Positions 6,300-48,588 of a stretch of 64,000 nt of DNA are shown here, piece after piece; positions within the stretch are counted from its first letter, which is position 1; every line of letters starts with the position of its first letter. The position numbers and the translations under genes were made by a program. The stretch spans positions 9,289-73,288 of the forward strand of contig CAWEXP010000008.1 of NCBI GenBank assembly GCA_963813065.1, written 5' to 3'. This stretch comes from Candidatus Kaiserbacteria bacterium (lineage in GTDB: Bacteria > Patescibacteriota > Minisyncoccia > Phycocordibacterales > Phycocordibacteraceae). Below the pieces are notes generated by a model. It ran no database searches, was not told the DNA's origin, and saw only the letters and a program-made list of their open reading frames with translations.

Positions 6300-7130
6300 C
6301 TAGCGTTTTTCAATAAAGAAATTCTTTCCCATTTTCACTTTCAGCGCGCGGGCCTTCCGCGCGTTTCTTGTTATTTTGATCTTGTGCCGTGCTTTTATGA
6401 GGAGCAGTCGATCAAACTCGCTCCGCACCACTTCGTCGAACGTCTCGTGTTCCCGGTACAGCACGTCAACATCCCGAGCCACCACGGGATCAAGGTGCGC
6501 CTCGGTAATGTAGTCACCAATGACCACCACATAACGATTGCGCTCAGGAAAAATCTCCTCCATGTGGTACTGCCGGAGATCGCTGTCAAAATCTTTTTGA
6601 ATCACCTTATCGAGCGGATCCGTGCCGCCCACCGTCATGAGGAACTGTCGCCCGCTCTTCGCAATGTCCGCGACCAGCTTCTTCTCCGTCTCGGCGCGCG
6701 CGAGATAGAAGAAATAATGCGGATCATAGGTGTAAACCGGCTCGGTCACGGGCGTTTGATTAATAATAAGGCTTTGCGAATGGCCCCAGAACGTGTCGAG
6801 ATGTCGCGTATTCGAGAAGATGTACGAGACACTCTCCTTCTCGCCGAGCGCGAGAACGCCTGTTTCCTCCCTTTTCGGCAGATAGACTTCTTGCACCTGT
6901 TCCGCGACCGAGGCCAGTTCCTTCACCCAGGCAACATTCAACGCCACGTTCTTTTTATAAATAGTGATGGACTCCTCGGCCTCGAGTTTCCGCAGTGCCG
7001 CATAGAAACCCTGCTTGGTTACCTTCTTCTCTTCGGCAATCGCGGCCAGGAGCGTAGTGGTTCGCCGCTCGCCGCCCCGCAGGCGGTAGAGAATCCGTTC
7101 TTCTATATCTATAGGCTTGAGCAGGCTCAT
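6300..7130 (-). CDS. winged-HTH regulator-like protein, paralog family A
   Basis: N-terminal wHTH (RILYRLRGGERRTTTLLAAIAEEKKVTKQGFYAALRKLEAEE). Its C-terminal domain shares LDxFW, PHDxF and KAxALKxK...F motifs with 7556..8362 and 22138..22950. Confidence 0.6.
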   Translation of the reverse strand: MSLLKPIDIEERILYRLRGGERRTTTLLAAIAEEKKVTKQGFYAALRKLEAEESITIYKKNVALNVAWVKELASVAEQVQEVYLPKREETGVLALGEKESVSYIFSNTRHLDTFWGHSQSLIINQTPVTEPVYTYDPHYFFYLARAETEKKLVADIAKSGRQFLMTVGGTDPLDKVIQKDFDSDLRQYHMEEIFPERNRYVVVIGDYITEAHLDPVVARDVDVLYREHETFDEVVRSEFDRLLLIKARHKIKITRNARKARALKVKMGKNFFIEKR

Positions 7131-7268
7131 GGGTAGAATAGTATCAGAAAGTAAACTATTTATTTACTATTTGGCCATAATAGGCTATATTTTGTACAAA
7201 GTCAAACATTACGCGTATTCTCGGGGCAGACAAAGGGCGGGATGGTCTCGCCCTGAATGGAGGTAGCC

Positions 7269-7478
7269 ATGAAAAATCCTATGATCTTGGTCTACATTGG
7301 GCTCCTACTGCTTGGTGTTTTCGTCGCTGGCGAACTCATAACGAATCTCCTCGATCTCACCACCTACGGACATTTTGACTTGTGGGTCGAGTATGGATGC
7401 CCGATTGCACTGCTTAGCCTTGCACTGATCCTTGTGGGTGTCCTCTTAGAGAATGCCAAAAGCGGACCACACCCCTGA
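7269..7478 (+). CDS. small two-TM membrane protein (69 aa)
   Basis: GGAGG sits 7 nt before ATG 7269. Hydrophobic sequence MKNPMILVYIGLLLLGVFVAG... Followed by the terminator at 7491..7519. Confidence 0.45.
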   Translation: MKNPMILVYIGLLLLGVFVAGELITNLLDLTTYGHFDLWVEYGCPIALLSLALILVGVLLENAKSGPHP

Positions 7479-7490
7479 CTAGCGAACTCA

Positions 7491-7519
7491 AGAGCCCCGC
7501 AATGCGGGGCTCTTTTCTA
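7491..7519 (+). terminator. Rho-independent terminator
   Basis: agagccccgc-aat-gcggggctct stem followed by TCTTTT. Confidence 0.6.
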
Positions 7520-7538
7520 TACAAAACCGAGCATATCT

Positions 7539-9365: not shown

Positions 9366-10199
9366 TTATAAGTTGAGATGATTTCTTAAATCTGTATGCG
9401 ATATTTTAAGACCTTGATCTGTTGCGTAATTCAAACGCACAGCACCGCCAGGCAGTAGTTTCCCATTTTCTTTTAAAAAAGAAACATTTACCACTCGCTT
9501 CCCAAGGTCTTTTACTGCGTCAACAGCGGGAACATAGTCCTGATCACCAGACAGTATTACTGCCACATCATAAATATCCTTTAATTTCACGAGATCCGTG
9601 GCCAATTTTACGTCGACAGCTTTTTCCTTACCTAATCGTTTTTCAAAAAGATCATAGCGAATCGAGCCAGAACGTCGAAATTCAATTGCTGTAAAATCTC
9701 CTGCGATTTTATTTTGTATATAGGTCCAACCATCAAATCTACCCTTCATGTGTACTTGATTCTTCTCTAGTGCAGAAAGCATTCTGTCCATTCGATCTTT
9801 TTGAGCCGCATCATTTTGGCCCTTCGACAAATCTTCTGCCCATGGCGGATAGCTTGTTAGAATCTGCTTTAACAAAATTCGATCTTTACGAGCTGTATTT
9901 AAGTTGTACGGCGCACAATCCAGATTAGAGACTACATACCAATACGTTCTGACGCGATACGCATCTTTACCCGCTACCTCACAGGCAATCCAGTCGAAAA
10001 ATTTAGTCCAGTCTGCGTTTTTGGGTAAATAATCCCACTCATTAAAAATAGGCGTTGGGAACAGCTCAACTATCGAATGCCGAAGATTTTCTCCGTCAAC
10101 AAAAATACAGACTCGTTTACCGTGGTTGTGATCGGTGGGCATGAGCAAAGGCGGCTCGACGGCCGCCTTTGTTATATCACATTCTTTCCCCGAATCCAC
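9366..10199 (-). CDS. NYN/LabA-like domain protein (predicted RNase), 277 aa
   Basis: VCIFVDGENL ... VILSGDQDYVPAV motifs typical of NYN/LabA (PIN-like). AT-rich codon usage unlike its neighbours. Confidence 0.7.
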   Translation of the reverse strand: MDSGKECDITKAAVEPPLLMPTDHNHGKRVCIFVDGENLRHSIVELFPTPIFNEWDYLPKNADWTKFFDWIACEVAGKDAYRVRTYWYVVSNLDCAPYNLNTARKDRILLKQILTSYPPWAEDLSKGQNDAAQKDRMDRMLSALEKNQVHMKGRFDGWTYIQNKIAGDFTAIEFRRSGSIRYDLFEKRLGKEKAVDVKLATDLVKLKDIYDVAVILSGDQDYVPAVDAVKDLGKRVVNVSFLKENGKLLPGGAVRLNYATDQGLKISHTDLRNHLNL

Positions 10200-13622: not shown

Positions 13623-14138
13623 CTAGGAGCGACTCGTGATCGTGAACTTCTTTGGGTCCTCGCACATATCGGTGAAGGCGTGCACGACTTCTTTGAGTTT
13701 CGACGAGGTCGACTTGCCGAAGGAGATCGCTTCGACCTGGCATCCCATATTCATGTCGAGATACTCGACGAGCGGAGCGAAGTCGCCATCGCCCGAGGCG
13801 ATGATAATCGTGTCGAGTTTGGGGGCCATTTTCACTGCATCGATGGCGAGCCCTACGTCCCAGTCGGCCTTCTTAGCGCCGTCGGCGAAGATTTGCAGAT
13901 CTTTCACCTTGGTCTCGATGCCAATCTTGGTGAGCGCGTCGAAGAAAGCGCTCTCTTCCCCACTCTCGGTGGAGATAACGTAGGCAATAGCGCGCACGAG
14001 GATGCGGCCGCCGACGGCTTCTTCGAGCACTTTGGCGAAGTTAACGCGCGCTTTGTAGAGATGTTTCGCGCTGTGATAGAGATTTTGCGTATCGATGAAG
14101 ACGCCTACGCGTTGCGCCGGATGTTTGATGACTGCCAT
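13623..14138 (-). CDS. NYN/LabA-like domain protein (171 aa)
   Basis: VGVFIDTQNLYHSAKHL ... IIASGDGDFAPLVEYL motifs. Confidence 0.7.
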   Translation of the reverse strand: MAVIKHPAQRVGVFIDTQNLYHSAKHLYKARVNFAKVLEEAVGGRILVRAIAYVISTESGEESAFFDALTKIGIETKVKDLQIFADGAKKADWDVGLAIDAVKMAPKLDTIIIASGDGDFAPLVEYLDMNMGCQVEAISFGKSTSSKLKEVVHAFTDMCEDPKKFTITSRS

Positions 14139-18850: not shown

Positions 18851-18944
18851 ATGGTTGCCCTCCTGAGGCAGGCGCCGAAGCGCGATGGGATGAACTTGAT
18901 TTCTGCGACTAGTGTATCGGAATGTAGTATAAAGTCAAGAGGTA

Positions 18945-18973
18945 TTGACGACTAAACTAATGACCGATAATAT
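18945..18973 (+). promoter_or_regulatory. sigma70-like promoter TTGACG-17 nt-TAATAT upstream of 19000..19773
   Basis: Consensus-like hexamers with 17-nt spacing in an AT-rich intergenic region. Confidence 0.5.
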
Positions 18974-18999: not shown

Positions 19000-19773
19000 A
19001 TGTCAATAATTATTGACCAAACGGATAGTAAGGAATTGATTGGGGGGCTAGAAACGTTAGGACTCAACGCCAAGGAGGCGCAGGTCTATCTGGCTCTCCT
19101 GCCCCGTCGGGACGTGGGGTCCTCGAAGATTGTGCTCGCGACCGGGCTCCATAAGCAGTTCGTCTACAACGCTATCGAGAAGCTGGAGCAGTTAGGACTT
19201 GTCAAGCACGTCATCCAGAACGGGCGCAAGAAATTTAGCGCCAATCCGCCCAGCCGTCTGCTCTCTATAGTTGAGGAAAAGCGCCTTGCGGCGCAGAATA
19301 TGGCCAAGCGCTTACAGGAACGATTCAGTGGTCAGCACGAACAGGACGTTGAGGTATTCCAAGGGGATTCAGCCGTCCTCGCCCACCACTACGACATGTT
19401 GGAGCGTATCGAGCAGGACCAAGAGGCACAGGTTATATGCGGCCCGACCGAGACTTTTCTTAAGATTATCGGCCCGGACGAAAAGGACGTGTTCGAGGAG
19501 ACGCGCGTGGCTAAGGGGCTACACATCCGATATCTAGGGATGGAATCTATGAGGGAACGACTCATCGAGACGAAAAAATGGCGCAAGCTTTTTGATTACC
19601 GCATATTGCCCGGCGGCCAGTCTACCGGCCAACTCGATATTGATATATGGCCTAACAACGTGACCTATAACCTCTTCGGCGACCCCCTTCTCTCCATCAC
19701 AATTACGAACAAAGCAATGACCGACGGATACCGAGAATTCTTCGAATCGCTCTGGGCGCTCTCCAAGCCATAA
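19000..19773 (+). CDS. TrmB-like wHTH transcriptional regulator, paralog family B
   Basis: N-terminal TrmB-type HTH (AKEAQVYLALLPRRDVGSSKIVLATGLHKQFVYNAIEKLEQLGLV). C-terminus shares YREFFESLW with 29853..30590 and 47695..48588. Confidence 0.7.
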   Translation: MSIIIDQTDSKELIGGLETLGLNAKEAQVYLALLPRRDVGSSKIVLATGLHKQFVYNAIEKLEQLGLVKHVIQNGRKKFSANPPSRLLSIVEEKRLAAQNMAKRLQERFSGQHEQDVEVFQGDSAVLAHHYDMLERIEQDQEAQVICGPTETFLKIIGPDEKDVFEETRVAKGLHIRYLGMESMRERLIETKKWRKLFDYRILPGGQSTGQLDIDIWPNNVTYNLFGDPLLSITITNKAMTDGYREFFESLWALSKP

Positions 19774-21694: not shown

Positions 21695-21766
21695 GCCCCG
21701 ATGGTGAAATGGATATCACAACAGCCTTCGAAGCTGTTGTTCCAGGTTCGAATCCTGGTCGGGGCA
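21695..21766 (+). tRNA. tRNA-Arg (anticodon TCG)
   Basis: Manual cloverleaf: acceptor GCCCCGA/TCGGGGC, D-arm GTGA-AATGGATA-TCAC, anticodon loop CTTCGAA, T-arm CCAGG-TTCGAAT-CCTGG. Confidence 0.8.
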
Positions 21767-21805
21767 CTACTTCGCTCAGAGTACTGAGCTTCGCAGTGCA
21801 AGCAC
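21761..21805. repeat. attL-like repeat overlapping the last 6 nt of tRNA-Arg
   Basis: ggggcactacttcgctc is identical to 27503..27519. The following ~28 nt are about 80% identical. Confidence 0.6.
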
Positions 21806-21828
21806 AAAAAAAGGCGGCCGTAGCCGCC
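21805..21828 (-). terminator. Rho-independent terminator for the minus-strand small membrane protein gene
   Basis: ggcggc-cgta-gccgcc stem with a U-tract on the minus strand. Confidence 0.5.
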
Positions 21829-21837
21829 TAGCTAAAG

Positions 21838-22095
21838 TTAGAAACAAGGTAACCAAGCACCGCAGTGATCCATCATTGTATTGAAGATTGTCGCAAGCAG
21901 TAAGCCCAGCGCTATGGCTCCAAAATTGCATACGATACCGGTGAGCGCGTATTTCTCTCTGTCTGTCACTAGTTTCTCCTTGAATTCATCCAACCAACCC
22001 TCGGGCTCGTTCTTAATCATTTCTATCTCCCTACTGTCTAAGTGACAATTTACTAAAAAATAAATTAGCGCACTACTTTTAATGCATATTTTCAT
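21838..22095 (-). CDS. small membrane protein
   Basis: AT-rich frame with a C-terminal TM helix (GIVCNFGAIALGLLLATIF). Terminator downstream. Start may be the internal Met at 22017. Confidence 0.4.
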   Translation of the reverse strand: MKICIKSSALIYFLVNCHLDSREIEMIKNEPEGWLDEFKEKLVTDREKYALTGIVCNFGAIALGLLLATIFNTMMDHCGAWLPCF

Positions 22096-22137
22096 AACTT
22101 TTGCACTTTTTGTTCATTTTATGCTATTCTGGCCCGA

Positions 22138-22950
22138 GTGATTTTCACCACACAAGAGACACTTGAAGACCGCATCATCCGGCTGGTGCTTGAAGAGAAG
22201 GCAAGCATCAAGGCGCTCCACCAACGCCTCGCGGGAGAGGAGAAGCTCTCCCTCCGCGCGGTCTACAAGGCCGTCGACAAGCTGATTGGCGCCGGCGTGC
22301 TCATTAAAGCGGGTCAGCGGGTGGTGCTGAGCGCAGAGTGGGCGGGAAGAGTCGTCGAGGGGTTACAGACTTCTCCTTTGTCGGTGCTCGGCGAGGGCGA
22401 ACGAGCGGTCTACACCTTCGCGAGCATGGAACATCTCGACGCCTTCTGGAAAACGGTAGTTCTACCGCTCGAGGCGGCGGCCGAGGAGAAAGAAATCTTC
22501 TTCTACAATCCCCACGACTTCTGGGCGTATCTCCCCGAGCGGCGGGAGAGCGAGGATGCCTATTACCGACATTTTGCAGCAACCGGGAGGCATGGTTTCT
22601 TGGTTGTTGGCGGTGAGTCGCTGGCAGATCGAGAGTTTAAGCGCACATACCAGAACGAAAACTTCCAAATTGATACGCGAAATGTGAGTTCTCTCGCACG
22701 CCGAGACCATCTCACCATCCTCGGGCCACTGGTTATAACCGTCCGCCTGCCTAAAAAGCTTGCGGCCCATATCGACGATCTCTACGCATCGGGGAAGGCG
22801 ATGTCGGCGCTCCTGCCGAGCGTGCTCGAGGCTTGCCGGGCACCCGGGACACTACGCTTTGTCCTTGAGAACCATCCGGCGAAAGCGAAGAGAATTAAAC
22901 AGCTATTGGCTAAGAATTTCTATTTCAAACAGCACGAGGGCATGTTATAG
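22138..22950 (+). CDS. winged-HTH regulator-like protein, paralog family A
   Basis: Paralog of 6300..7130 and 7556..8362 (LDAFW, PHDFW, KAKRIKQLLAKNFYF). Confidence 0.6.
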   Translation: MIFTTQETLEDRIIRLVLEEKASIKALHQRLAGEEKLSLRAVYKAVDKLIGAGVLIKAGQRVVLSAEWAGRVVEGLQTSPLSVLGEGERAVYTFASMEHLDAFWKTVVLPLEAAAEEKEIFFYNPHDFWAYLPERRESEDAYYRHFAATGRHGFLVVGGESLADREFKRTYQNENFQIDTRNVSSLARRDHLTILGPLVITVRLPKKLAAHIDDLYASGKAMSALLPSVLEACRAPGTLRFVLENHPAKAKRIKQLLAKNFYFKQHEGML

Positions 22951-22961
22951 TCTCGAACGAA

Positions 22962-23032
22962 GCGGATATGGTTTAGTGGTAGAACGCGTCCTTGCCAAGG
23001 ACGAGACGGGAGTTCGATTCTCCCTATCCGCA
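22962..23032 (+). tRNA. tRNA-Gly (anticodon GCC)
   Basis: Acceptor GCGGATA/TATCCGC, anticodon loop TTGCCAA, T-arm GGGAG-TTCGATT-CTCCC. Confidence 0.8.
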
Positions 23033-23101
23033 CAGCAGTCAGGGCCCCAGTTTTCGTCTGCGAGGCCTCGAAAATAGTTCGCAACCGCGAGGGGTATTTT
23101 G

Positions 23102-23404
23102 CTATGCCCGATGCGTTTTGCGGTGCTCGATTAGCACCTCCGCCGGAGACTTGCCGTCGAGGATGCGGTGCGGGAAGCAGTTCCAGGCATCCGTTGCGGT
23201 TTCCACTGCGTTACTCATGTTGATAGGGTCGCCATTGTCGAACATCATGATGACCTGTTGCATATCGTCGGTCTCTTCCTCCTCATAAATAGCTTCGAGC
23301 ACATCGGCAAGCTCGAAGTCGCTCCCGGTCGACTTCGAGAAATCCGCTATTTCGACCTCAAGCTCGGCGCGACGGGCAAGCAATTCCTCAATGGTTTCGG
23401 GCAT
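23102..23404 (-). CDS. hypothetical acidic protein (100 aa)
   Basis: Open frame inside the island. No family recognised. Confidence 0.4.
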   Translation of the reverse strand: MPETIEELLARRAELEVEIADFSKSTGSDFELADVLEAIYEEEETDDMQQVIMMFDNGDPINMSNAVETATDAWNCFPHRILDGKSPAEVLIEHRKTHRA

Positions 23405-23427
23405 TGGGGATATAATAGCGCACTCGA

Positions 23428-23670
23428 TTAAGACGCGTAAAAGTGCTCGCGCAATTCGTCCTCTGGTATGTAGCGGGAGGCCTGCTTGAATATCGCCACC
23501 ACCGCGCCAGTCTTGAGCTCCTTGTGGTTCGAGATGAGGAGCGTCTGCTTCTGCCCAGCTCGCTCGCGCACGAGGATGATGTGGCTTCCGCGTTGGCGCT
23601 CCACTTCAAATCCAAACTGCGCGAGCATCTTAACGACTTCTGCTCCAGAGAGACGCTTCGGCTTAGGCAT
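23428..23670 (-). CDS. hicA: HicA-family mRNA interferase toxin
   Basis: SGAEVVKMLAQFGFEVERQRGSHIIL pattern typical of HicA (YcfA-like). Confidence 0.7.
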   Translation of the reverse strand: MPKPKRLSGAEVVKMLAQFGFEVERQRGSHIILVRERAGQKQTLLISNHKELKTGAVVAIFKQASRYIPEDELREHFYAS

Positions 23671-23890
23671 GCGCGAGCGCAGGGAGCTCGAAGTTCACGA
23701 GCACCGAAGGGTCTGCGGAAAAACCGAGGTCGGAGAGGGCCTCCCCTTCCATAAAGAGGCTGACTGCTTCTTTAATATTCGCCGTAAGCTCATCAAGTGT
23801 ATCGCCTTGGGTGACGATAGGCACAGAGACGCCCTCAGCGACATAGCCGCCGTCGCTCTCGGAGACCTGGAATTGCAGGATGCCTTTCAT
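23663..23890 (-). CDS. hicB: HicB-family antitoxin (UPF0150-type N-terminal domain)
   Basis: YVAEGVSVPIVTQGDTLDELTANIKEAVSLFME matches the HicB N-terminal fold consensus. Overlaps hicA by 8 nt. Confidence 0.65.
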   Translation of the reverse strand: MKGILQFQVSESDGGYVAEGVSVPIVTQGDTLDELTANIKEAVSLFMEGEALSDLGFSADPSVLVNFELPALAHA

Positions 23891-23923
23891 ATCAGCAGTA
23901 TACCATATTTGCTCATTTTCAGC

Positions 23924-25336: not shown

Positions 25337-25360
25337 GTTCGGTAGGTAATGCTATGATGT

Positions 25361-29696: not shown

Positions 29697-29852
29697 CTTC
29701 CGATAAGAAGAATACAGAACAATGTGTGAATTTGTCAGTACTGGCCTGATTCTATAAATTTCTTGGCCGAAATGTGACGTATATGCTTGTTCGTATAGGT
29801 GATAAATGTCAGAAATATTGACAAAATAGCTGGTTTAGAATAAGCTGTTTGC

Positions 29853-30590: not shown

Positions 30591-30592
30591 GT

Positions 30593-31102
30593 ATGACCAT
30601 TACTCTGATTGGCATGAGCGGAGCGGGGAAGAGCGCCGTGGCGGAACACCTCGTGCGCCTCTCGGGCGGCACAATGCTCGATATCGATAAGGTTATCGAG
30701 AGCGAAGAAGGTGAGGCGCTCGAACACACCCTCGCGCGCCTGGGCGAAGAAGATTTTCTGCGGAGAGAAGAGCGCGCGGCGCTCGCACTCAACCTCGACG
30801 AGCACGCCATCATTTCGACCGGCGGGAGCATTGTGCTTTTGCCCGAGGCGATGGCATTCCTCAAAGAGAATTCGACAGTGATTTATCTGCAGACAGACTT
30901 CGAGACGATTGCGCAGAGGATCGGCGAAGGTGGTGGCCGCGGTATCGTCGGCTTGGGGCGCAAATCGCTTCGCGAGATTTATGACGAGCGGCTTCCACTC
31001 TACGAGCAATACGCCGACATCATTGTCGATACTAATCGTGCATCAGTCGAAGACATTGCAGGCCGAGCGTACGCGCTCGCGCAATCTACAAATTTTTCGT
31101 AA
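30593..31102 (+). CDS. aroK: shikimate kinase
   Basis: ITLIGMSGAGKSAV Walker A and shikimate-kinase layout. ATG 30593 chosen over the upstream track start, which overlaps the preceding gene. Confidence 0.8.
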   Translation: MTITLIGMSGAGKSAVAEHLVRLSGGTMLDIDKVIESEEGEALEHTLARLGEEDFLRREERAALALNLDEHAIISTGGSIVLLPEAMAFLKENSTVIYLQTDFETIAQRIGEGGGRGIVGLGRKSLREIYDERLPLYEQYADIIVDTNRASVEDIAGRAYALAQSTNFS

Positions 31103-32261
31103 TCTCCGCTTCGAGTGCGCGGATTTGCGGGGCGAATGCGGAGGCGGCTTGCATAGGCGTTTCTGCAAAAAGAGTTTCGAGTGTGGTGCCCGTCTCGCCG
31201 ATGTACGCGCGGCGGATGTAGTCAGCAGTGATGGCGTTCACATTGCGCGTATTGGTCGCACCCTCGACGGTGCTCGTGGTAATCGTGGCTTCGAGATTAC
31301 CCGAGGTGCCCGCGACACCGCCGCCCGAGGAGCCCTCCTGCGCCGCGGCAGAGCCCCCGAGCGCGATGATGTCGGGTGTATCGGTGTCAAAGGTGTACAC
31401 GCCTTTCACGCTCCCGTAGACAATGGTGGGGTAGAGCGAAGATTGTATCTGGGCGGATTGCAGGAATTGCGCACCATACGAGGCGATGACGACCGGCTCA
31501 TTCGTCGTCGGCGCAACACTCGCGAGCGGAATGGCAGGGAAGATGGTTGGGAGCGCCGCACCACCTGTGGTGAGCGAAGTCGAACCAGACGCAGAACCGG
31601 TAATCGCGAGCAGTGCGTAATCGTGTTCGCCATCGCCCGAGGGTGCCGACTCGGAGAGGACCGCGCTGTTGGCAGAAATCCACGCCGGCGAAATGAACAT
31701 GAGCGCGGCGCGATAACTGTCGACGGCGGGACTGCCCACGCGAATGTCGCAGGCGACGCCGCGATCAGCGAGGAGGAAATATTGCGCGACGTGTGCATTG
31801 GTGAGGATGATGCCGCGCGAATCGATGATGATGCCACTCCCCGATATTGAGCGAATGGAGGAACCTGCAGGCGCGTAACAGACGATATTGACGAGTGCCG
31901 AGCGGAGCGCAAGCGCGGTGGCATCGAGCGGCACCGTACTCGCGGGCGCGGGGCTAGCCGGCACCGGAATAACGACAGCCGGAGGAGCGGGCGGTGCAGC
32001 CGAAATCTTTTTTATCGGTGGAGTCGGCGTGGCTGGCGCAGGAGCAACAGGGATAGTCGAAGAAGGAAGCGTTGGCAAAAGACTCTGGATGGTGATCGGC
32101 GCGGATTTCTCGCTTGGTATCACCACAAGCTCGGGCGACGAGCTCGAACTTTCTGACGCAACGACGGCGACCGGCCGGGGCGGCGCACCCGTAGAATAGA
32201 CCACGATGAAGGCCGCGAGGAGACATCCTGCCGCGACACCGAAGTAGGGAAACCAGCGCAT
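31086..32261 (-). CDS. membrane-anchored trypsin-like (S1) serine protease
   Basis: N-terminal TM anchor and Pro-rich linker. GSGIIIDSRGIILTNAHV (His region), DYALLAI (Asp), QEGSSGGGV (GDSGG-like Ser). Confidence 0.65.
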   Translation of the reverse strand: MRWFPYFGVAAGCLLAAFIVVYSTGAPPRPVAVVASESSSSSPELVVIPSEKSAPITIQSLLPTLPSSTIPVAPAPATPTPPIKKISAAPPAPPAVVIPVPASPAPASTVPLDATALALRSALVNIVCYAPAGSSIRSISGSGIIIDSRGIILTNAHVAQYFLLADRGVACDIRVGSPAVDSYRAALMFISPAWISANSAVLSESAPSGDGEHDYALLAITGSASGSTSLTTGGAALPTIFPAIPLASVAPTTNEPVVIASYGAQFLQSAQIQSSLYPTIVYGSVKGVYTFDTDTPDIIALGGSAAAQEGSSGGGVAGTSGNLEATITTSTVEGATNTRNVNAITADYIRRAYIGETGTTLETLFAETPMQAASAFAPQIRALEAEITKNL

Positions 32262-32311
32262 TACGGTAACGCTACCGCAAAAACCGAAAAAACGGTATGC
32301 TCGAAATGTTC

Positions 32312-32385
32312 GCGGAGTTAGTTTAATGGTAGAACTTCAGTTTTCCAAACTGATAGCGGGAGTTCGATTCTCCCACTCCGCACCA
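32312..32385 (+). tRNA. tRNA-Gly (anticodon TCC), CCA encoded
   Basis: Acceptor GCGGAGT/ACTCCGC, anticodon loop TTTCCAA, T-arm GGGAG-TTCGATT-CTCCC, 3' CCA. Confidence 0.8.
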
Positions 32386-41412: not shown

Positions 41413-42891
41413 TTATTCGTCGGACGCGCTCTTGTCGCGCGACTCTTCGGTATCGACAATAGAATTGTCTTCGGTCTGCATCAGCTCCTCCTCAGCAGGG
41501 AGCTCGTCCTTCTCCGGCGCGACGACTACTTCGATAAGCTCGTCGCTCTCGGTCGGCAGAACGCCAGCCTCTTTCGCGAGCAGGTCGGGGTCGGTCGGTT
41601 CAACCGTAGGAATCTCATCGGCTAAAGCCTGCTCTGCAGGCTCGCCCGACGCGCCAGCTGGCGCGTCTAGGGGAACGGTCACGACTTCGCCGTCGCTCTC
41701 GGCGACCTCGGTGCCGCCGGTGGAGACGATGTCGATGTTCCAGCCGGTCAGCTTGGCGGCGAGGCGAACGTTCTGGCCGCCACGACCAATCGCAAGCGAC
41801 TGCTCATCCTCAGAGACGGTCACGGTCGCGCGGTGGCCAGCCTCGTCGAGCTCCACCGTAAGTGGTGTCGCGGGGGAGAGCGCTTCCTTAATAAATTCGC
41901 GTGAGTCGTCGTTCCACTCGATGATGTCGATGCGCTCGCCACCGAGCTCGCTCATCACCGTCGAGACGCGCACGCCGCGCTGGCCGACAAGCGAACCGAC
42001 GGGGTCGACATGTGGATCGAGTGAGGCAATCGCAATCTTGGTGCGACTGCCGGGCTCGCGCGCGATGCCCTTCACTTCGAGCGAACCGGCCGCCAGCTCG
42101 GGCGCCTCCTGCTCAAAGAGCTTCACGACAAACTTGGGGTGTGCACGCGAGAGGCGCAGGTACACGCCGCGGAATCCTTCTTCCACATTGTAGAGATACG
42201 CGCGGATGCGCTCGCCCGGGCGATAGCGCTCGCCGGGAATCTGTTCCTCGTAGGGGATAAGGCCGGTAGCGCGGCCAAGGTCGACGAAAATCGCCCCACG
42301 CTCCATGCGCTGGACGATGCCACCGACAATCTCGCCCTTCTTCTCGCCAAATTCCTCGAGCATCGAGAGCTTCTCGGCCTCGCGCACCTTCTGGATGACC
42401 GTCTGCTTGGCAGTCTGGGCGGCAATGCGGCCGAAGTCCTCCTGTGGTTCGAGCGGGAAGACGATTTCATCGCCCAAAACGGCGCCACGCTTGATCAGCT
42501 TGGCATCGGCGAGGAGGATGTGCTTCTCGGGGTCGAAGCGCGGGAGCTCGCCCTCGGCAAGCTGTTCCTCTTCGTCACGATGGAAATGCGGACGCTCTTC
42601 GACTACCTCCTCCGACTCGTCGGGGAAGCGAACGGTGCTCTCGTCGACGACGGTTTTCACCTGCTCGAAAGAGACGGTGCCGGTCGAGAGGTCAATCCGC
42701 GACCGGATGACCTGCCCGCGCTTGCCGTACTCACGCTTGTACGCGGTAGCCATGGCGCTCTCGATGGCGTCGATCATCGTCGCGCGACTGATGCCGCGAT
42801 CCTCGAATTCTCCCAGAACTGCGTTGATTGTTTTGAGGTCTAACATATGGATTGTGTATGTCTCACCTTGTAAAAAGAAAGTCCGGCGCAC
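41413..42891 (-). CDS. nusA: transcription termination/antitermination factor NusA with acidic C-terminal extension
   Basis: N-terminal domain, S1 domain (IVGGIVQRMERGAIFVDLG), two KH domains. The start is probably the Met at 42846. Confidence 0.9.
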   Translation of the reverse strand: MRRTFFLQGETYTIHMLDLKTINAVLGEFEDRGISRATMIDAIESAMATAYKREYGKRGQVIRSRIDLSTGTVSFEQVKTVVDESTVRFPDESEEVVEERPHFHRDEEEQLAEGELPRFDPEKHILLADAKLIKRGAVLGDEIVFPLEPQEDFGRIAAQTAKQTVIQKVREAEKLSMLEEFGEKKGEIVGGIVQRMERGAIFVDLGRATGLIPYEEQIPGERYRPGERIRAYLYNVEEGFRGVYLRLSRAHPKFVVKLFEQEAPELAAGSLEVKGIAREPGSRTKIAIASLDPHVDPVGSLVGQRGVRVSTVMSELGGERIDIIEWNDDSREFIKEALSPATPLTVELDEAGHRATVTVSEDEQSLAIGRGGQNVRLAAKLTGWNIDIVSTGGTEVAESDGEVVTVPLDAPAGASGEPAEQALADEIPTVEPTDPDLLAKEAGVLPTESDELIEVVVAPEKDELPAEEELMQTEDNSIVDTEESRDKSASDE

Positions 42892-43270
42892 CGGACAGTC
42901 AGTAGGAATAGGATAGCAGAAAGGAAAGGTTGCGTCAATAACGCCGAGAGGGTAGGGTGAGCACAGAAAGGAAGGTGTTGGATGGACGGGAAGAAAATAA
43001 TTTCGGTCATCGAGATGTACCAGCGCAAGCTTTCAGGGTGCGGCGTTATTCAAGAACGAATGGATCCTGGGAGGACCTTTCAAAGCTTATCTCAGGACGA
43101 ATTACTATCGCATGCTTTCTTTTTGTGTTCGTTTGCGAAGGAATACGCCGCCGATCCGGAAAAATTCGGCAAGGCAAATCGGCACCTTACCGCAATACAG
43201 ATGTGTCTCAGCTTCGCCGGTTGGTACACTCTTGAAGACTTGATGAATCATAATCGCCCTTGAGCATTGC
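42870..43270 (+). ncRNA. speculative RNase P RNA-like structured RNA. Alternative reading: an AT-rich CDS at 42982..43263.
   Basis: Motifs in the expected order: GAAAGTCCGG (42877..42886, P4 5' strand), TAACGCC (42939..42945), AGGGTGAGCACAGAAAGG and AGGGTGCGG (42952 and 43035). A downstream CGCCGGTT (43215) could pair with the P4 5' strand leaving a bulged U. Followed by the terminator at 43277. Not verified. Confidence 0.2.
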
Positions 43271-43276
43271 TCACAC

Positions 43277-43308
43277 CGGGCGGCCGATTACGGCCGTCCG
43301 TTTTATTT
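43277..43308 (+). terminator. Rho-independent terminator
   Basis: cgggcggccg-atta-cggccgtccg stem followed by TTTTATTTT. Confidence 0.5.
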
Positions 43309-43309
43309 T

Positions 43310-45073
43310 GTGAGCTATACTGGTGTGATGCATGTCTCGGAAGGGGAGCTGAAGGAGTTCATCATCGACTCCGGCCTCGTCGCGAAATCGGAGATCGACG
43401 ATGCTGATGCCGAAGCGAAACAGCGCGGTCAATCACTCGGCGATATTCTCGTCTCGCGCGGCACGCTGACCGAGGACGCCCTGCGGCGCATCCAGGCGTA
43501 CGTGATCGGCGTACCCTTCGTTAATTTGAAAGACCAGCGCATCCTGCCCGAGATTCTCTCGCTGATTCCTGAGCCCATCGCGCGCACGCACAACATTATC
43601 GCCTTCAAGCGGAGCGCCGACTCACTCGAAGTCGCGATGCTCGATGCCGAGGACCTCGCCTCGATTGATTCGGTGCGCAAGAAGACCGGACTGAAGATTT
43701 TGGTTCGACTCACCGACACCGAAAGCGTCAAGAATGCGCTCCTGCAGTATCAGAAGTCGCTCAAGGATGAGTTCGGTGACATCGTCTCGACCGAGACCGC
43801 GAAACTGAAGAACGTGGCGGGCGATGCTGACCTCTCGGCGAGTGAGTTGAAGAAGATGGCCGAAGATTTGCCGATTGTGCGCATCGTCGACACGCTCCTG
43901 CGCCACGCGATTGTGCAGAGCGCTTCCGATATCCATATCGAACCGATGGAAGATGAGGTGCTGGTGCGCTATCGCATCGACGGCATTCTCCATGACGCAA
44001 TGACGCTCCCGCGCGCGGCGGCGGCGGGCATTGTCGCGCGCATCAAGGTGCTCGCCAACTTGAAATTGGACGAAAAAAGATTGCCGCAGGATGGTCGCTT
44101 CAAGATGGAAACTGAGGCGGACAAAGTATCTTTCCGCGTCTCGACGCTCCCCACCTTCTACGGCGAGAAGGCCGTGATGCGTATCTTGCGCGAGAATGGC
44201 GAAGGATTCACGCTCGATGTACTCGGTTTCCACGGCGAGGATCTCGAGCGATTGCATCGCGCGCTCCGACAGACCACCGGCATTGTGCTTGTCTCGGGCC
44301 CAACCGGTTCTGGCAAGACGACGACGCTCTACACCATGCTCGATATTTTGAATACGCCGCGCGTCAACATTTCAACCATCGAAGATCCTATCGAATATCA
44401 GATGAAGCGCGTGAATCAGACGCAGGTGAACCCGCAGATCGGTCTCACCTTCGCCAATGGTCTGCGCTCGCTCGTGCGCCAGGACCCTGACATCATCATG
44501 GTCGGCGAAATCCGCGATGCCGAGACCGCCTCACTCGCCATAAATGCCGCACTCACCGGTCACCTCGTCCTCTCGACCATTCACACCAACTCGGCCAGCG
44601 GCGCCATCCCGCGCCTCATCGACATGGGCATCGAGCCCTTCCTCCTCGTCTCGACCATTCGCGCCATCGTCGGCCAGCGACTCGTGCGTCGGCTCTGCGA
44701 CAGCAAAGAGGCGGCCGAACTTTCGTCCGCACTCCGTGCCACTATTTGCCCTGAAGAACATTTCGATTCTGCACTGCAGACATTGAAGGACGAAAATCTC
44801 GTGCCTGCGGAGACCGCGCTTGATGCTTTGCCTTTTTATCGTGCGGTCCCCTCGGTCGAGTGCGAGGATGGCTACAAAGGTCGCATCAATATTTCAGAAG
44901 TGATGACCATCACACCCTCGCTCCGCGAGAGCATCCTCGCATCTGCATCGAGCGATGTGCTTGAAGAGCAGGCGCGCAAGGAGGGCATGCGCACGATGCT
45001 TGAGGACGGTATCTACAAAGCCGCGCGTGGCATCACCTCACTCGAGGAAGTGCTTCGCGCCGTCTCTGAGTGA
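43310..45073 (+). CDS. pilB: type IV pilus assembly ATPase PilB (GspE family)
   Basis: GspII_E N-terminal domain, Walker A VSGPTGSGKTTTLYTML, Asp and His boxes, C-terminal tetracysteine. ATG 43328 is the likely start (TATACT sits 6 nt upstream, implying a leaderless mRNA). Confidence 0.9.
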   Translation: MSYTGVMHVSEGELKEFIIDSGLVAKSEIDDADAEAKQRGQSLGDILVSRGTLTEDALRRIQAYVIGVPFVNLKDQRILPEILSLIPEPIARTHNIIAFKRSADSLEVAMLDAEDLASIDSVRKKTGLKILVRLTDTESVKNALLQYQKSLKDEFGDIVSTETAKLKNVAGDADLSASELKKMAEDLPIVRIVDTLLRHAIVQSASDIHIEPMEDEVLVRYRIDGILHDAMTLPRAAAAGIVARIKVLANLKLDEKRLPQDGRFKMETEADKVSFRVSTLPTFYGEKAVMRILRENGEGFTLDVLGFHGEDLERLHRALRQTTGIVLVSGPTGSGKTTTLYTMLDILNTPRVNISTIEDPIEYQMKRVNQTQVNPQIGLTFANGLRSLVRQDPDIIMVGEIRDAETASLAINAALTGHLVLSTIHTNSASGAIPRLIDMGIEPFLLVSTIRAIVGQRLVRRLCDSKEAAELSSALRATICPEEHFDSALQTLKDENLVPAETALDALPFYRAVPSVECEDGYKGRINISEVMTITPSLRESILASASSDVLEEQARKEGMRTMLEDGIYKAARGITSLEEVLRAVSE

Positions 45074-45074
45074 T

Positions 45075-46286
45075 ATGAAATTCACCGTCGTCATCGAACG
45101 CGAGGGTGGCCAACGCGAAGAGCGCGTGATCGAGGCGGAGTCGCGCTTCGCGGTCTATGCCAACGTGCAACGCGAAGGCGGCACGGTCATCTCATTTAAA
45201 GAGAAAAGTAATTTCAACCCGCTCGCCTGGCTCACTCGGCCGATTGGCCTCGGCGTGAGTCGCCGCGAACTCGTCATCATGACGAAAAATCTCTCCGCGA
45301 TGCTCGCCGCCGGTCTCCCGCTCTCACGCGCCCTCGAGGTAATCGAGAAACAATCGCCCGGCACCAGCATGCGCACCGTCGCCGCGAGCGTTGGCGCCTC
45401 GGTGCGGAAAGGCTCTTCATTCCACGACGCTCTGGCCGAGCATCCGCACGTCTTCTCCGGACTCATGATCGCGATGACCAAGGCCGGCGAGGAATCGGGG
45501 TCGCTCGCGAAATCGCTCGCGGTGACCAGTCTCCAGATGGAACGCTCGCTCGAGCTCTCGCGCAAGATTACGGGAGCACTCATCTACCCGGCCATCGTGC
45601 TCGCGACGGTCATCGTTGGCACCATCTTGATGCTCACCTATGTCGTGCCGACTCTGACCAGCACCTTCGCCGAGATGCGCATCCAACTCCCACTCGTGAC
45701 GCAGATTATTGTCGCAACCTCGAGCTTTTTTGTCGCCAACATGGTCGCGGTAATTTGCACACTCATTATTATTATTCTACTGGCCGTCCTCTTCTTCCGT
45801 TCGCGCGCCGGCGGCACGACCGGATTGTGGGTTGCGCTCCGCATTCCGATTATCGGTGAGCTCGTGCGCGAGAGCTATGCGGCGCGCACCGCACGCACCC
45901 TCTCCTCGCTCCTCGCCTCAGGCGTGCCAGTACTGAGTGCGCTCGCGATTACCCGCGAGGTGGTTCGCGCGGGAAGCTTCACGCGGGTCGTTGCCGAGGC
46001 TGAAGCGCGTGTGAAAAAAGGTGAACCTATGTCGAGCGCTTTCTCCGCACACAAGGATATCTATCCCGCCATGATGAGCGAAATGCTCGCGGTGGGGGAG
46101 GAGACCGGCACGGTCGCCGAGATGCTCCAACAAGTCGCCGATTTCTACGAGAGCGAAGTCGCGGACAAGACCAAAGACCTCTCCGCGCTCATTGAACCGC
46201 TCTTGATGCTCCTCATCGGCACCATGGTTGGCATCTTCGCTATTGCGATGATCGCCCCGATTTATTCGCTTTCATCGGCTATCTAA
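45075..46286 (+). CDS. pilC: type IV pilus inner-membrane platform protein PilC (GspF family)
   Basis: Two GspF repeats and TM helices. ATG 45075 lies 1 nt after the pilB stop. Confidence 0.85.
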   Translation: MKFTVVIEREGGQREERVIEAESRFAVYANVQREGGTVISFKEKSNFNPLAWLTRPIGLGVSRRELVIMTKNLSAMLAAGLPLSRALEVIEKQSPGTSMRTVAASVGASVRKGSSFHDALAEHPHVFSGLMIAMTKAGEESGSLAKSLAVTSLQMERSLELSRKITGALIYPAIVLATVIVGTILMLTYVVPTLTSTFAEMRIQLPLVTQIIVATSSFFVANMVAVICTLIIIILLAVLFFRSRAGGTTGLWVALRIPIIGELVRESYAARTARTLSSLLASGVPVLSALAITREVVRAGSFTRVVAEAEARVKKGEPMSSAFSAHKDIYPAMMSEMLAVGEETGTVAEMLQQVADFYESEVADKTKDLSALIEPLLMLLIGTMVGIFAIAMIAPIYSLSSAI

Positions 46287-46708
46287 TGCGCGCTATTTTT
46301 AGAGGATCCGCCTCGGCTCAGACGCCTCGTCGAGACGGGTTCAGCCTCATCGACACTCTGGTCGGCATCGCGCTGGTGCTGATTCTCTTCCTCGCGCTCT
46401 TCGGCGTCCTCCGCGCCTCGCTCGCGCTCTCGAATCTCGCGCGTATCAAGTCCGCCGAGGTCGGGCTCCTCGAGACTCAGATGGAATATCTGCGTGGTAT
46501 TAGCTATGACTCACTCGGCATCACGGATGGCGACCCTGTGGGCGTGATCGCGGCCGAGACAGAGGCAACGGTTGATGGCGCGCACTACACCATCCGCACC
46601 GCCATCGTGATGGCCACGAGCACGGACCCGGCCAAGACTGCCGAGGTGACCGTCTCGACCAATGACGGAGCACACGCGCTCTCGCTCGTCTCCAACTTTG
46701 CACCATGA
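46286..46708 (+). CDS. prepilin-type (type IV pilin/pseudopilin) protein
   Basis: Class III signal motif GFSLIDTLVGIALVLILF (G/FxLxE-like N-methylation site). ATGA overlap with pilC. Confidence 0.7.
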   Translation: MRAIFRGSASAQTPRRDGFSLIDTLVGIALVLILFLALFGVLRASLALSNLARIKSAEVGLLETQMEYLRGISYDSLGITDGDPVGVIAAETEATVDGAHYTIRTAIVMATSTDPAKTAEVTVSTNDGAHALSLVSNFAP

Positions 46709-47193
46709 AGCTAAAACAATTGCGGAGCAATTGTTCGCCCGAACGCGCAGAAGCGCGTTTTAGGGGCTTCACTCTTATTGAAACACTCGTCGCCATCGCA
46801 CTCTCGGTGATTGTGGTGACGGCGCTCGCGAGCATGATTAACTATTTCTACGCGACGAATGCCACGACACTCGCCGCGTGGCAATCGGTCTCGAGTGACC
46901 GGGCGAATCTCGAATGGTCGATGACCAAGCTCCGCGAGGCATCGTCCATCACCAGCGCCGGAGACTCTTCACTTTCGTACGAAACGATGCTCGGCGGCGC
47001 GACCACCTCGGCTTCCTACACACTCAGCGACGCGACATTCACGTACTATGACGCCAGTGGCACGCCGCTCACCAATCCCGTTGATCCGGCGCAGGTGCGC
47101 GCGGTGCTCGTGCGCGAAGTGGTGAACGCCGGCCAGGCGGTCGAGACGACGCTCTTCGCCGGCGCCGCACTCCGCAATTCTCCAAGACCATGA
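46705..47193 (+). CDS. prepilin-type protein
   Basis: RGFTLIETLVAIALSVIVV class III signal motif. Overlaps the neighbouring gene by 4 nt. Confidence 0.7.
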   Translation: MKLKQLRSNCSPERAEARFRGFTLIETLVAIALSVIVVTALASMINYFYATNATTLAAWQSVSSDRANLEWSMTKLREASSITSAGDSSLSYETMLGGATTSASYTLSDATFTYYDASGTPLTNPVDPAQVRAVLVREVVNAGQAVETTLFAGAALRNSPRP

Positions 47194-47669
47194 AAAACTT
47201 TTCACGCGGTTCAGTCCTTATCCTCGCACTTGTCTTCGGCGGAATCTTCTTCGCGGTCTTCACCGCGCTCGCGGGCTACCTCCTTTCGATTGATCGCGCA
47301 CAAGATTTCGTCTATCAAAAAGCCGAGGCGCTTTCGACTGCGGAGGCGGGTCTCGCGCTCGAACGTTCGCATCTCGAGAACAATCCGCTCGATACCAGTA
47401 CCCCAAACCCGAGCACGGTGTCTTATCAAAATATTGAGGGTACTACCGTCGGTACCTATACCATCGCGGTCGTGCCGCACACCGAATGCGGTGAGAGCAC
47501 CGCGTTCGATCTTAGCTCGACCGGCATACCGAGCGATGCGCCCTCGATCAGCACGACCATTTCTCTACGCTATGTCGAACCATCGGGCACCTATTCGCTC
47601 GCGCCAGACTGCGTGCCCCTGTCCGCCTCCTCGACCGCGCCGCAATTCTTAGACTGGCAGGAACGATAA
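47190..47669 (+). CDS. pilus minor component-like protein with N-terminal hydrophobic anchor
   Basis: MKNFSRGSVLILALVFGGIFFAVFTALAGYLL. Lies in the same operon with 4-nt overlaps. Confidence 0.5.
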   Translation: MKNFSRGSVLILALVFGGIFFAVFTALAGYLLSIDRAQDFVYQKAEALSTAEAGLALERSHLENNPLDTSTPNPSTVSYQNIEGTTVGTYTIAVVPHTECGESTAFDLSSTGIPSDAPSISTTISLRYVEPSGTYSLAPDCVPLSASSTAPQFLDWQER

Positions 47670-47694
47670 TTGCTTTCCTGGAGGGAAACGGTTT

Positions 47695-48588
47695 TTACTT
47701 CTTACTTTTACTCCACAGGAAGTCGAAATAATTTTGATAATTTGTGGCGAGTTCCTTATTCACAATCTCGACAACGAAATACGGCTCGACGAACGACTGG
47801 ATGCAGATTCGGTCGCCCAGAATCTCGATATTGTTCGTATCGCTCGAGACCAGCGTATTGGTGCGTATCTCGGTAAGACCTTTTGTCCGCTTCGCATAAC
47901 TTTGTATGGCAGGGAAGTGCTCTTTGGCAATACCGCGCGCTTTAACTTTCTTCGCTTTTTGTATAGCGATAACCTCGTTCTCGACCGAGGGGCCCGCGAT
48001 GGTATGCCAGTGTGGGGAAGTCCCGAGGTAGCGGAGCGTGTCACCTGGTTTCGCAAGACTATAGGAACGCGCGACATGCCTGCGGAACTCGTCGATACCC
48101 TCGTAAACGATAATCTCTTGGTCATTCGTGTGCCGCGAAAGCAAACGAAGCTCATCAATAGCGAGTTTCGCGGCGCGCTCCCGCTCTTGTGCATCGGCGA
48201 GGAGTCGCGCAGGCGGAAGCATCTTGTAGAGCGCGACTCCCTTCACACGCGAGAGCGCGACGAGCCCTTTCTCTCGCAATTCCTCGAGTGCGGTATACAC
48301 AATGTTGCGATGCAAACCCGTTTTCTTGATCAGCTCGCCCGCCTTTGCTTCGCCCATCTTCGCCAGAGCTAGATAAGTCGTCGACTGATTCTCGGTGAGC
48401 CCGACATTCTTCAAGTGGTCGAAAATAGCTGTCATAGCGAGGGTGATGGGGAAGTAAATCGGCTCGTAATTACTCACACATTCTGTCATCTCCCAGTATA
48501 TATCATCATAAAAGTGTTGACAATCATCTCTGTGGCGCGCAAGGTAGGTACAGACACTCTTTGAAAGGAGATAGGAATGCCTGAACAA
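47695..48588 (-). CDS. TrmB-like wHTH transcriptional regulator, paralog family B
   Basis: TTYLALAKMGEAKAGELIKKTGLHRNIVYTALEELREKGLV HTH. C-terminal YQNYFDFLW matches the other family B members. Confidence 0.7.
   Translation of the reverse strand: MFRHSYLLSKSVCTYLARHRDDCQHFYDDIYWEMTECVSNYEPIYFPITLAMTAIFDHLKNVGLTENQSTTYLALAKMGEAKAGELIKKTGLHRNIVYTALEELREKGLVALSRVKGVALYKMLPPARLLADAQERERAAKLAIDELRLLSRHTNDQEIIVYEGIDEFRRHVARSYSLAKPGDTLRYLGTSPHWHTIAGPSVENEVIAIQKAKKVKARGIAKEHFPAIQSYAKRTKGLTEIRTNTLVSSDTNNIEILGDRICIQSFVEPYFVVEIVNKELATNYQNYFDFLWSKSKK

Follow-up and report, generated by a model that had tools for sequence, protein, structure and literature searches.

What are six regulator-like genes, falling into two families of three, doing in one 64-kb stretch of a Candidatus Kaiserbacteria genome, and does their number reflect a recent expansion? 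In this study, we followed up a preliminary description of this stretch (contig CAWEXP010000008.1, positions 9,289 to 73,288; the whole 64,000 nucleotides are referred to as the window), in which the genes here named A1, A2 and A3 (family A) and B1, B2 and B3 (family B) had been read as winged helix-turn-helix (wHTH) regulators, those of family B being of TrmB type. We propose that the six proteins are probably TrmB-superfamily regulators of the TrmBL2 type, that they represent old clades and that each would bind a clade-specific dyad at its own promoter and repress its own gene.

The window was annotated by Pfam scans, and its 735 open reading frames (ORFs) of at least 50 aa served as the set in which further members were sought. 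All six genes were confirmed by ORF and translation where they had been placed, and the division into two families of three held as well. In pairwise blastp with the database size fixed at 1e6, the members of family A align over their full length with 22-29% identity (E-values of 3e-22, 7e-13 and 6e-10) and those of family B with E-values of 7e-16, 2e-8 and 2e-4, and hidden Markov models of the two families recover exactly three A and three B proteins among the 735 ORFs, with no others below E = 0.1. The C-terminal motifs quoted for the two families are real and not spurious, as they form the conserved family cores and contain invariant residues; invariant positions are Y42, L48, W67, L110, D111, W114, P136, H137, R144 and F270 in a 54-sequence alignment of family A and, among others, Y30, V55, Y56, G66, L67, P84, F248 and W252 in a 32-sequence alignment of family B. 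The TrmB label given to family B also stood, at E-values between 1e-10 and 1e-13: the Pfam TrmB wHTH domain PF01978, with a gathering score of 25.6 bits, is matched by B1 (40.4 bits, E 2.6e-10), B2 (39.1 bits, E 6.8e-10) and B3 (48.3 bits, E 9e-13), and family B homologues carry the same domain in their precomputed annotation. Judged by these profile matches, family B belongs to the TrmB family at the sequence level. The domain PF11495 (Regulator_TrmB) is not significant, its sole match (E 0.057) being misplaced in a spurious N-terminal extension of B3, and the NCBIfam equivalogs for TrmB, TrmBL1 and TrmBL2 score 12-33 bits against cut-offs of 500-650. Family A has no match in Pfam or NCBIfam, and its profiles found nothing significant among the PDB sequences, with none below E 0.09.

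The class of family A emerges from predicted structure. The AlphaFold2 model of A1 has a predicted local distance difference test score of 93.3 and that of B1 a score of 86.4. When the A1 model was compared with the PDB using Foldseek, TrmBL2 (5bpd) was the best match (E 5.7e-7, ~290 columns), followed by TrmB (3qph; E 2.9e-5), the alignments with these two proteins spanning about 280-290 columns, and next by proteins of the phospholipase D (PLD) fold, namely NucT, SauUSI and phospholipase D. The B1 model likewise matched TrmBL2 (E 3e-14), TrmB (E 1.3e-9, TMq 0.53) and the TrmB sugar-binding domain (2f5t; E 1.2e-4), with NucT, Nuc, F13 and PLD3 as further matches. The elements follow one another in the same way in both models: first a three-helix wHTH and its beta-hairpin wing, next a long helix (residues 65-82 in A, 85-109 in B) and then a beta-alpha-beta-alpha-beta... 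domain, whose closing C-terminal helix holds the 'KAxALK...F' tail in family A and the 'YRxFFxxLW' tail in family B. A regular-expression search found the catalytic HxK(x)4D (HKD) motif of PLD enzymes in none of the six proteins, and in the A3 clade the strand equivalent to its position reads DH(I/L/V)T; as the motif is missing, the PLD-like domain is of the non-catalytic kind already found in TrmB. Going by the models, all six proteins have a TrmBL2-type architecture (wHTH, long helix, HKD-less PLD-like domain) and family A is a cryptic TrmB relative, recognisable by its predicted fold only, so that the earlier wHTH call for this family is borne out and extended to TrmB-like. The invariant polar residues of the family A PLD-like domain are D111, H137 and R144, and 58 columns are invariant within the A3 clade (18 sequences); such strong conservation of the C-terminal domain suggests a surface that binds a ligand or a partner.

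Six paralogues in 64 kb had been taken for a strong expansion in a compact genome. Homologues of the two families were found exclusively in Patescibacteria (Ca. Kaiserbacteria, Parcubacteria group, Paceibacterota, Minisyncoccia, Uhrbacteria, Sungbacteria and Magasanikbacteria), which places the window in a Kaiserbacteria-like genome of the candidate phyla radiation. From the sequence comparisons each gene is its clade's only copy in the window, the six clades being separate and old, and there are no recent duplicates. Clade relatives share 42-66% identity with A1, 46-61% with A3 (13 GTDB species representatives), 48-93% with B1, whose clade is the most conserved and is found across Paceibacterota, 66-70% with B2, the GTG start being kept, and 45-83% with B3 (~70 clusters, nearly all of 244-252 aa). 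The A2 clade is sparse and fast-evolving, with best full-length identities of 41-43%; a phmmer search of 1.84e9 representatives gave 480 matches at E <= 1e-3, 15 of them at <= 1e-30. The idea that A2 is a recent tandem duplicate of A1 was rejected, as A2 forms its own old clade in the tree and no A2-type gene lies next to the A1 orthologues of three other genomes. Family A as a whole amounts to ~500 clusters at 50% identity, all annotated as 'hypothetical'. The same clades also occur together in other genomes; on one 131-kb contig, A3-type, CCA-adding enzyme, A1-type, exoIII-like and B1-type genes lie inside ~7 kb. As the clades are distinct and co-occur elsewhere, the paralogy is ancient and phylum-wide and not the outcome of a recent burst. 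The expansion is therefore not upheld as a recent or lineage-specific burst, the trees giving six old clades, whereas a radiation at the level of the phylum, lineage-specific and unusually dense, does stand; we came close to finding conserved orthologues in place of lineage-specific paralogues, but at phylum level the radiation is still specific to the lineage.

Additional family B genes, orthologous to none of B1-B3, number 13 in ~215 kb flanking A-type and B3-type anchors and 12-15 in 320 kb around B1 anchors, both counts being biased by the choice of anchors; the scan of the genome collection for A-type loci was run with the A3 clade. A dense complement of TrmB-like genes seems to characterise the lineage in general, and it is unusual for bacteria, in which TrmB proteins have been reported to make up 0.5% of transcription factors (TFs) as compared with ~12% in archaea (PMC9426492). 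Proteins of ~388 aa related to B3 (P0307-P0312; 37-43% identity over full B3) were seen in Magasanikbacteria and other Patescibacteria, and their ~140 extra residues are possibly an added sensor domain.

What these proteins may bind is indicated by clade-specific conserved elements, mostly dyads, at the own promoters of five clades, A1, A3, B1, B2 and B3. Among these candidate operators the case is strongest for B1. Of the 77 B1 loci that a metagenome scan returned, 55 are non-redundant; the dyad TCAA-N6-TTGA (in its fuller form TGTCAA-N6-TTGAyGA) lies upstream of the gene in 44 of the 55, and in 34 of those 44 its place is -65 to -63 relative to the start codon. An exact dyad is also present at +3 in 29/55 loci. 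Elsewhere only three further copies occur in ~235 kb, there is no other copy in the window, and composition-matched shuffles contained a mean of 0.2 dyads per 56 sequences. The +3 copy covers codons 2-6 (MSKxxD). Of the six serine codons, TCA is the one used at codon 2 in 50 of 52 sequences, and the third base of codon 5 is T in 48 of 51 while the encoded residue may be I, T, L, F, V or S; in the model, residues 1-5 show up as disordered. With bases fixed where the residues vary and are disordered, the constraint at this copy is therefore on the DNA, and such synonymous-site constraint supports a DNA-level role. Together, the two sites at -64 and +3 argue for autoregulation of B1.

The elements of the other clades are likewise tied to the promoter. 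In 8/12 A3-type loci the exact A3 consensus is found 20-37 nt before the start codon, and with one mismatch it is present in the window and in the related loci L002 and L005; it sits immediately upstream of an extended -10 (TGnTAnnnT), and it had one off-target match among all loci compared at that stage and no second copy in the 64 kb. The A1 dyad is kept in all four aligned A1-type upstream regions, again just upstream of an extended -10, and has no second copy in the window, where 0.03 would be expected by chance. The B2 dyad, unique in the window, lies within a 23-nt block that is identical at the locus of a 69%-identical ortholog, the flanks having diverged. For B3, the start is most likely the ATG at 48435 (246 aa, as in its orthologs) and not the TTG at 48588, the GenBank form having 264 aa, and the block GTCAACAyWTTyATGrTGAyA is kept in five loci, the window and four orthologous ones with 51-66% protein identity; this block resembles the B1 element with one additional spacer base. 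The scan of upstream regions for shared palindromes, as proposed in the preliminary description, thus returned conserved elements (the A1, A3, B1 and B2 dyads and the B3 block); however, these are clade-specific, and the palindrome in front of the glycolytic gene tpiA, discussed below, is not among them. The coordinates of the genes, elements and neighbouring features are collected in Table 1.

Table 1. Regulator genes, candidate operators and neighbouring features in the 64-kb window
Feature	Position	Strand	Basis or remark
A1, family A regulator, 276 aa	6300..7130	-	ORF, AlphaFold2 model, orthologs
A1 extended -10 TGATACTAT	7138-7146	-	directly downstream of A1 dyad
A1 dyad AGTAAA-N7-TTTACT, candidate operator	7150..7168	.	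upstream alignment
Membrane ORF, 69 aa	7269..7478	+	between A1 and A2; called gene on Logan contig of same organism
Terminator hairpin, perfect 12+1+12	7490-7514		between 69-aa ORF and A2
A2, family A regulator, 268 aa	7556..8362	+	ORF, blastp, phmmer, tree
B1 O1, candidate operator GTCAAGAGGTATTGAC	18934..18949	.	core TCAA-N6-TTGA
B1, family B TrmB-type regulator, 257 aa	19000..19773	+	PF01978, AlphaFold2 model, Foldseek
B1 O2, candidate operator TCAATAATTATTGA	19003..19016	.	overlaps codons 2-6; 67 bp from O1
tRNA-Arg(TCG)	21695..21767	+	ARAGORN, Rfam; left neighbour of A3
A3 dyad TTGCAC-N5-GTTCAT, candidate operator	22101..22117	.	clade consensus TTGnAC-N5-GTnCAA
A3 extended -10 TGCTATTCT	22122-22130		downstream of A3 dyad
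A3, family A regulator, 270 aa	22138..22950	+	ORF, blastp, orthologs
tRNA-Gly(GCC)	22962..23033	+	right neighbour of A3; island begins after it
Island, ~4.3 kb	23055-27434		between tRNA-Gly(GCC) and tRNA-Pro(TGG)
Island imperfect direct repeats	23055-23071/27418-27434 and 23076-23093/27275-27292		
Large serine recombinase, island	23924-25336	-	
Type IV secretion system (T4SS)-pilin-domain protein, 476 aa, island	25361-26791		
B2 dyad TGTCA-N7-TGACA, perfect, candidate operator	29807..29823	.	right arm is the -35 of B2
B2 -10 TAAGCT	29841-29846		
B2, family B TrmB-type regulator, 245 aa	29853..30590	+	PF01978, orthologs
B3, family B TrmB-type regulator	47695..48435	-	listed ORF reaches TTG 48588
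B3 promoter block GTCAACACTTTTATGATGATA, 21 nt	48501..48521	-	
Membrane ORF, 139 aa	48577..48996	+	between B3 and tpiA
Terminator hairpin and T-run	49002-49023		after 139-aa ORF
Palindrome CCCGGTACCAAAT-AC-ATTTGGTACCGGG, perfect 13+2+13	49033..49060	.	
Extended -10 TGgTAGAAT of tpiA	49063-49071		ends 6 nt before tpiA ATG
tpiA	49078-49836	+	Pfam TIM 4e-60
pgk	49956-51080	+	Pfam PGK 2e-93

According to the model that we favour, each protein, as a dimer held together by the long helix as the probable dimerisation element or as a dimer of dimers, would bind the clade-specific dyad overlapping its own promoter, and this binding would repress its own transcription. At B1, the distance of 67 bp between the two sites suggests cooperative binding or bridging by a tetramer, the oligomeric state described for TrmBL1 (PMC4158304). 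Additional targets may exist elsewhere in the genome, and the C-terminal PLD-like domain, without the catalytic HKD motif and without the extra sugar-binding sub-domain of TrmB, would sense a small-molecule or protein signal. Autoregulation and palindromic sites have been described or proposed for archaeal TrmB-family members (PMC4158304).

Several results weigh against this model. The assignment of family A to the superfamily rests on predicted structure: PF01978 is matched at E <= 1 by none of its window proteins and by 0/54 family A members. When the two families were compared using hhalign, 22 columns of the recognition helix were aligned, with a probability of 10%, although this pairing includes a conserved Tyr equivalent to the reference residue Y50 of TrmB (PMC4158304); homology between A and B at the sequence level was rejected on this result, and the two are therefore treated as separate families joined by fold alone. 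Whole-chain TM-scores are low (0.33-0.53 overall), the values of 0.33-0.40 for A1 being due to differing domain orientations. In a regulon scan of the 64 kb, the A1, A3, B1 and B2 dyads were found at their own genes and at no other targets, and allowing mismatches brought up no further credible site. Lastly, -35-like hexamers (TTGACA, TTGnAC) coincide with several of the dyad arms.

The last point leads to the alternative that survives best, though we consider it rather unlikely: the dyads would be overlapping promoter elements, that is -35 and -10 boxes which divergent genes have face to face or back to back, and would not mark the true targets of the proteins. The likeness of dyad arms to -35 hexamers, seen as a resemblance to TTGACA in A3, B1 and B2, means that overlapping or back-to-back divergent promoters could account for part of the symmetry; most of these genes have a divergent upstream neighbour, and at the A1 dyad a promoter scan flagged TTTACT-17-TATATT on the plus strand. 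However, the second B1 copy, at +3, is intragenic, a position in which one would not expect a divergent promoter, and it is constrained at the nucleotide level; this copy argues against divergent promoters as a general explanation. Furthermore, half-sites within the spacer, such as GTnCAA in A3, are conserved, unlike normal promoter spacers, and the dyad stays while the divergent neighbour changes between genomes.

A second alternative, which we regard as unlikely, is that some or all of the proteins, B1 especially, are nucleoid or chromatin proteins like TrmBL2, coating DNA with low specificity and acting as global silencers. In archaea, TrmBL2 is abundant as a chromatin protein, and it binds both coding and intergenic DNA without much specificity (PMC3031468, PMC4158304); it is the best structural match of both families, whose length and layout agree with its 264 aa lacking the sugar-binding sub-domain (PMC4158304; PMC3031468), and the striking conservation of B1 across Paceibacterota would suit such a role. 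Sharp dyads in fixed positions at the own promoters with almost no other copies argue instead for specific binding, and six clades per genome would not be expected for an architectural protein. In addition, HU (Bac_DNA_binding) genes are encoded in related loci, so a conventional nucleoid protein is present.

The location of B3 near the glycolytic genes tpiA and pgk raises a further possibility, by analogy with TrmBL1/Tgr of Thermococcales or CggR of Bacillus, to which we give a similarly small chance: B3 would regulate tpiA-pgk through the 28-bp palindrome. The palindrome is as had been reported, perfect and unique in the window. It ends 17 nt before the tpiA ATG and abuts the extended -10, a placement that it shares with the A1 and A3 dyads, and archaeal TrmB-family proteins use palindromes to control glycolytic genes (PMC4158304). 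As in the window, B3 is found close to tpiA-pgk in two relatives of ~65% identity. However, the order is lost in two relatives at 55-61% identity, and where it is kept, the whole NusA-PilB...tpiA-pgk-RecJ order is conserved, so that proximity is no specific evidence. Neither syntenic relative has the palindrome in front of tpiA, locus L016 having an ordinary terminator and L015 nothing at this place; searched for with mismatches allowed, it has no second copy in the window, and it is unlike the block at the B3 promoter or any other conserved element at the regulators' own promoters. The membrane-protein gene of 139 aa with its own terminator stands between B3 and tpiA. The palindrome is also a strong hairpin straight after that terminator: the tandem hairpins at 49002-49060, a GC-rich terminator with a T-run and then the palindrome with just TTTGG behind it, have a combined folding energy of -48 kcal/mol (z = -8.9). 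The proximity of B3 to tpiA-pgk noted in the preliminary description is thus correct, whereas the regulatory link it hinted at finds little support beyond that proximity; the palindrome could act as the operator of some factor, perhaps one of the regulators, A2 being without an assigned element, or it could be specific to the strain or serve as a back-up terminator.

It is very improbable that the C-terminal PLD-like domain is enzymatically active, as a nuclease or phosphodiesterase of a defence or mobile-element system, as might be read from the Foldseek matches to NucT, Nuc, the SauUSI PLD domain, PLD3 and F13, the invariant D111, H137 and R144 and the position of A3 beside an integrative island, since the HKD motif is present in 0/6 proteins, TrmB and TrmBL2 themselves carry the catalytically dead fold, PADLOC gave HTH-level matches for family B and none for family A, PHROGs gave none bar one marginal HTH match, and the genes are core and syntenic across genomes and not island cargo. 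An active PLD enzyme was rejected on the first of these grounds and a defence or phage affiliation on the PADLOC and PHROGs results.

The surroundings of the genes deserve some comment. A3 had been described as island-borne, which is not the case, as it lies in a conserved tRNA cluster and the island stands beside it, starting after tRNA-Gly(GCC). The order tRNA-Arg, A3, tRNA-Gly(GCC), tRNA-Pro(TGG), ..., tRNA-Gly(TCC) is kept in 8/10 related loci, and the distance from tRNA-Gly(GCC) to tRNA-Pro is ~0.6-0.75 kb in related genomes as compared with 5.1 kb in the window. The tRNA cluster with A3 extends over 21695-32385 in the window and was also seen in loci L002, L003, L006-L009 and L014; a regulator gene embedded among tRNA genes is odd. 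A divergent small ORF (MPPSGF...) is encoded on the opposite strand ~150-400 nt upstream of the A3-type gene in L002, L003, L005, L006, L009 and L014, and in the window, which is without it, an 85-aa ORF is found instead (21838-22095, minus strand). In L014 the A3-type gene is split into overlapping ORFs (5998-6405 and 6293-6802), a frameshift pseudogene or an assembly error.

A1 and A2 had been called divergently paired; their orientation is indeed divergent, but they are not adjacent, as the 69-aa membrane ORF and a terminator hairpin intervene. Within 5 kb there are two NYN-domain (predicted RNase) genes (9366-10199 and 13623-14138, both on the minus strand), neighbours of ComM/Mg-chelatase-like and XerC/D-like genes, and other genomes have the same set, genes for NYN, exoIII-like, XerC/D, CCA-adding enzyme, RNase Y and ClpP proteins, in a changed order around their orthologues of A1 and B1. 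Upstream of B3 there is a competence/pilus neighbourhood (41413-47669) with NusA, PilB (T2SSE), PilC (T2SSF) and two prepilin-like genes, and downstream of pgk (51941-55899) a RecJ-like DHH protein and ComEC are encoded; the order NusA-PilB...B3...tpiA-pgk-RecJ is kept in L016. An ORF at 56852-57703 (minus strand) has a weak match to rve (integrase core; 28.1 bits, gathering score 32.6) and is a possible insertion sequence remnant. At tpiA, A1, A3 and B2 a Shine-Dalgarno sequence is lacking, and just 6-9 nt separate the start from the end of the -10 box, which often has the extended form TGnTAnnnT (49063-49080, 7128-7146, 22122-22140 and 29841-29855), and likewise for tpiA in L015 (about 2588-2610) and L016 (about 4020-4040). 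This suggests that leaderless mRNAs may be common in the lineage.

Among known systems, TrmBL2 (Pyrococcus furiosus PF0496, Thermococcus kodakarensis TK0471; PDB 5bpd, 5box, 5bqt and 5bpi) is the closest structure for both families. The proteins studied here resemble it in size (245-276 aa as compared with its 264 aa) and in having a wHTH, a long helix and a PLD-like domain without a C-terminal sugar-binding sub-domain (PMC4158304). They differ from it in being bacterial, from the candidate phyla radiation (CPR), in forming six clades per genome, five with sharp elements at their own promoters, and in sequence, with an identity to TrmBL2 of just 11-18%. With the sugar-sensing regulators TrmB, TrmBL1 and Tgr of Thermococcales and the Halobacterium TrmB (PDB 3qph, 2f5t), family B has the PF01978 wHTH in common; there is also likeness in the fold, including the N-terminal part of the effector-binding domain, and in the location of B3 near glycolytic genes, and these archaeal proteins have palindromic operators and are autoregulated (PMC4158304). 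Unlike them, and unlike MalR (all ~340-360 aa), the proteins of the window have no significant PF11495 match and are ~90 aa shorter, and the sugar-binding sub-domain is therefore missing; P. furiosus TrmB contacts sugar through seven residues, and these belong largely to that sub-domain (PMC4158304). The comparison with TrmB regulon motifs that had been suggested gave no match, as the candidate operators found here differ from both TGM (TATCAC-N5-GTGATA) and TACT-N7-8-GAGTA.

Two other groups share parts of this architecture. The PLD nucleases Nuc and NucT and the N-terminal domain of SauUSI have the same C-terminal alpha/beta fold (Foldseek E 5e-3 for A and 5e-5 for B; TM-score normalised to target 0.52-0.62), but they differ in the HKD motif, which is lacking here, and in the fusion of the domain to a wHTH in our proteins. 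CggR of Bacillus subtilis (PDB 8r3g) is encoded beside gap-pgk-tpi-type genes and gave a weak Foldseek match (E 7e-4 for B1, 0.018 for A1); unlike the proteins studied here, it belongs to the SorC/DeoR family with another effector domain, and the wHTH alone is common to both.

As the fold, the binding of palindromes and autoregulation are already known from archaeal TrmB, what we propose is not a new mechanism. In the library of papers that was searched, we found none joining TrmB with Patescibacteria, CPR or related lineage names. New are the recognition of family A as TrmB-like, a CPR lineage with many ancient TrmB-like clades, and the operator candidates including the dual B1 site. A wider view, which we put forward tentatively and would not call likely, is that the TrmB superfamily, including the unannotated family A, is the principal TF family of Kaiserbacteria/Paceibacterota, an archaeal-style repertoire of ancient autoregulated paralogues with operators readable by comparative genomics, in which global regulation would fall to B1, a near-universal clade with paired operators.

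Regulation in the CPR is almost unstudied. If the proposed model is correct, the 'hypothetical' proteins of family A would become interpretable as TrmB-like regulators, and a bacterial lineage would be seen to lean heavily on a mainly archaeal regulator family. It would also provide testable pairs of protein and operator for mostly unculturable organisms, the best being B1 with its two TGTCAA-N6-TTGAyGA sites, and the reconstruction of regulons from metagenomes would be feasible.

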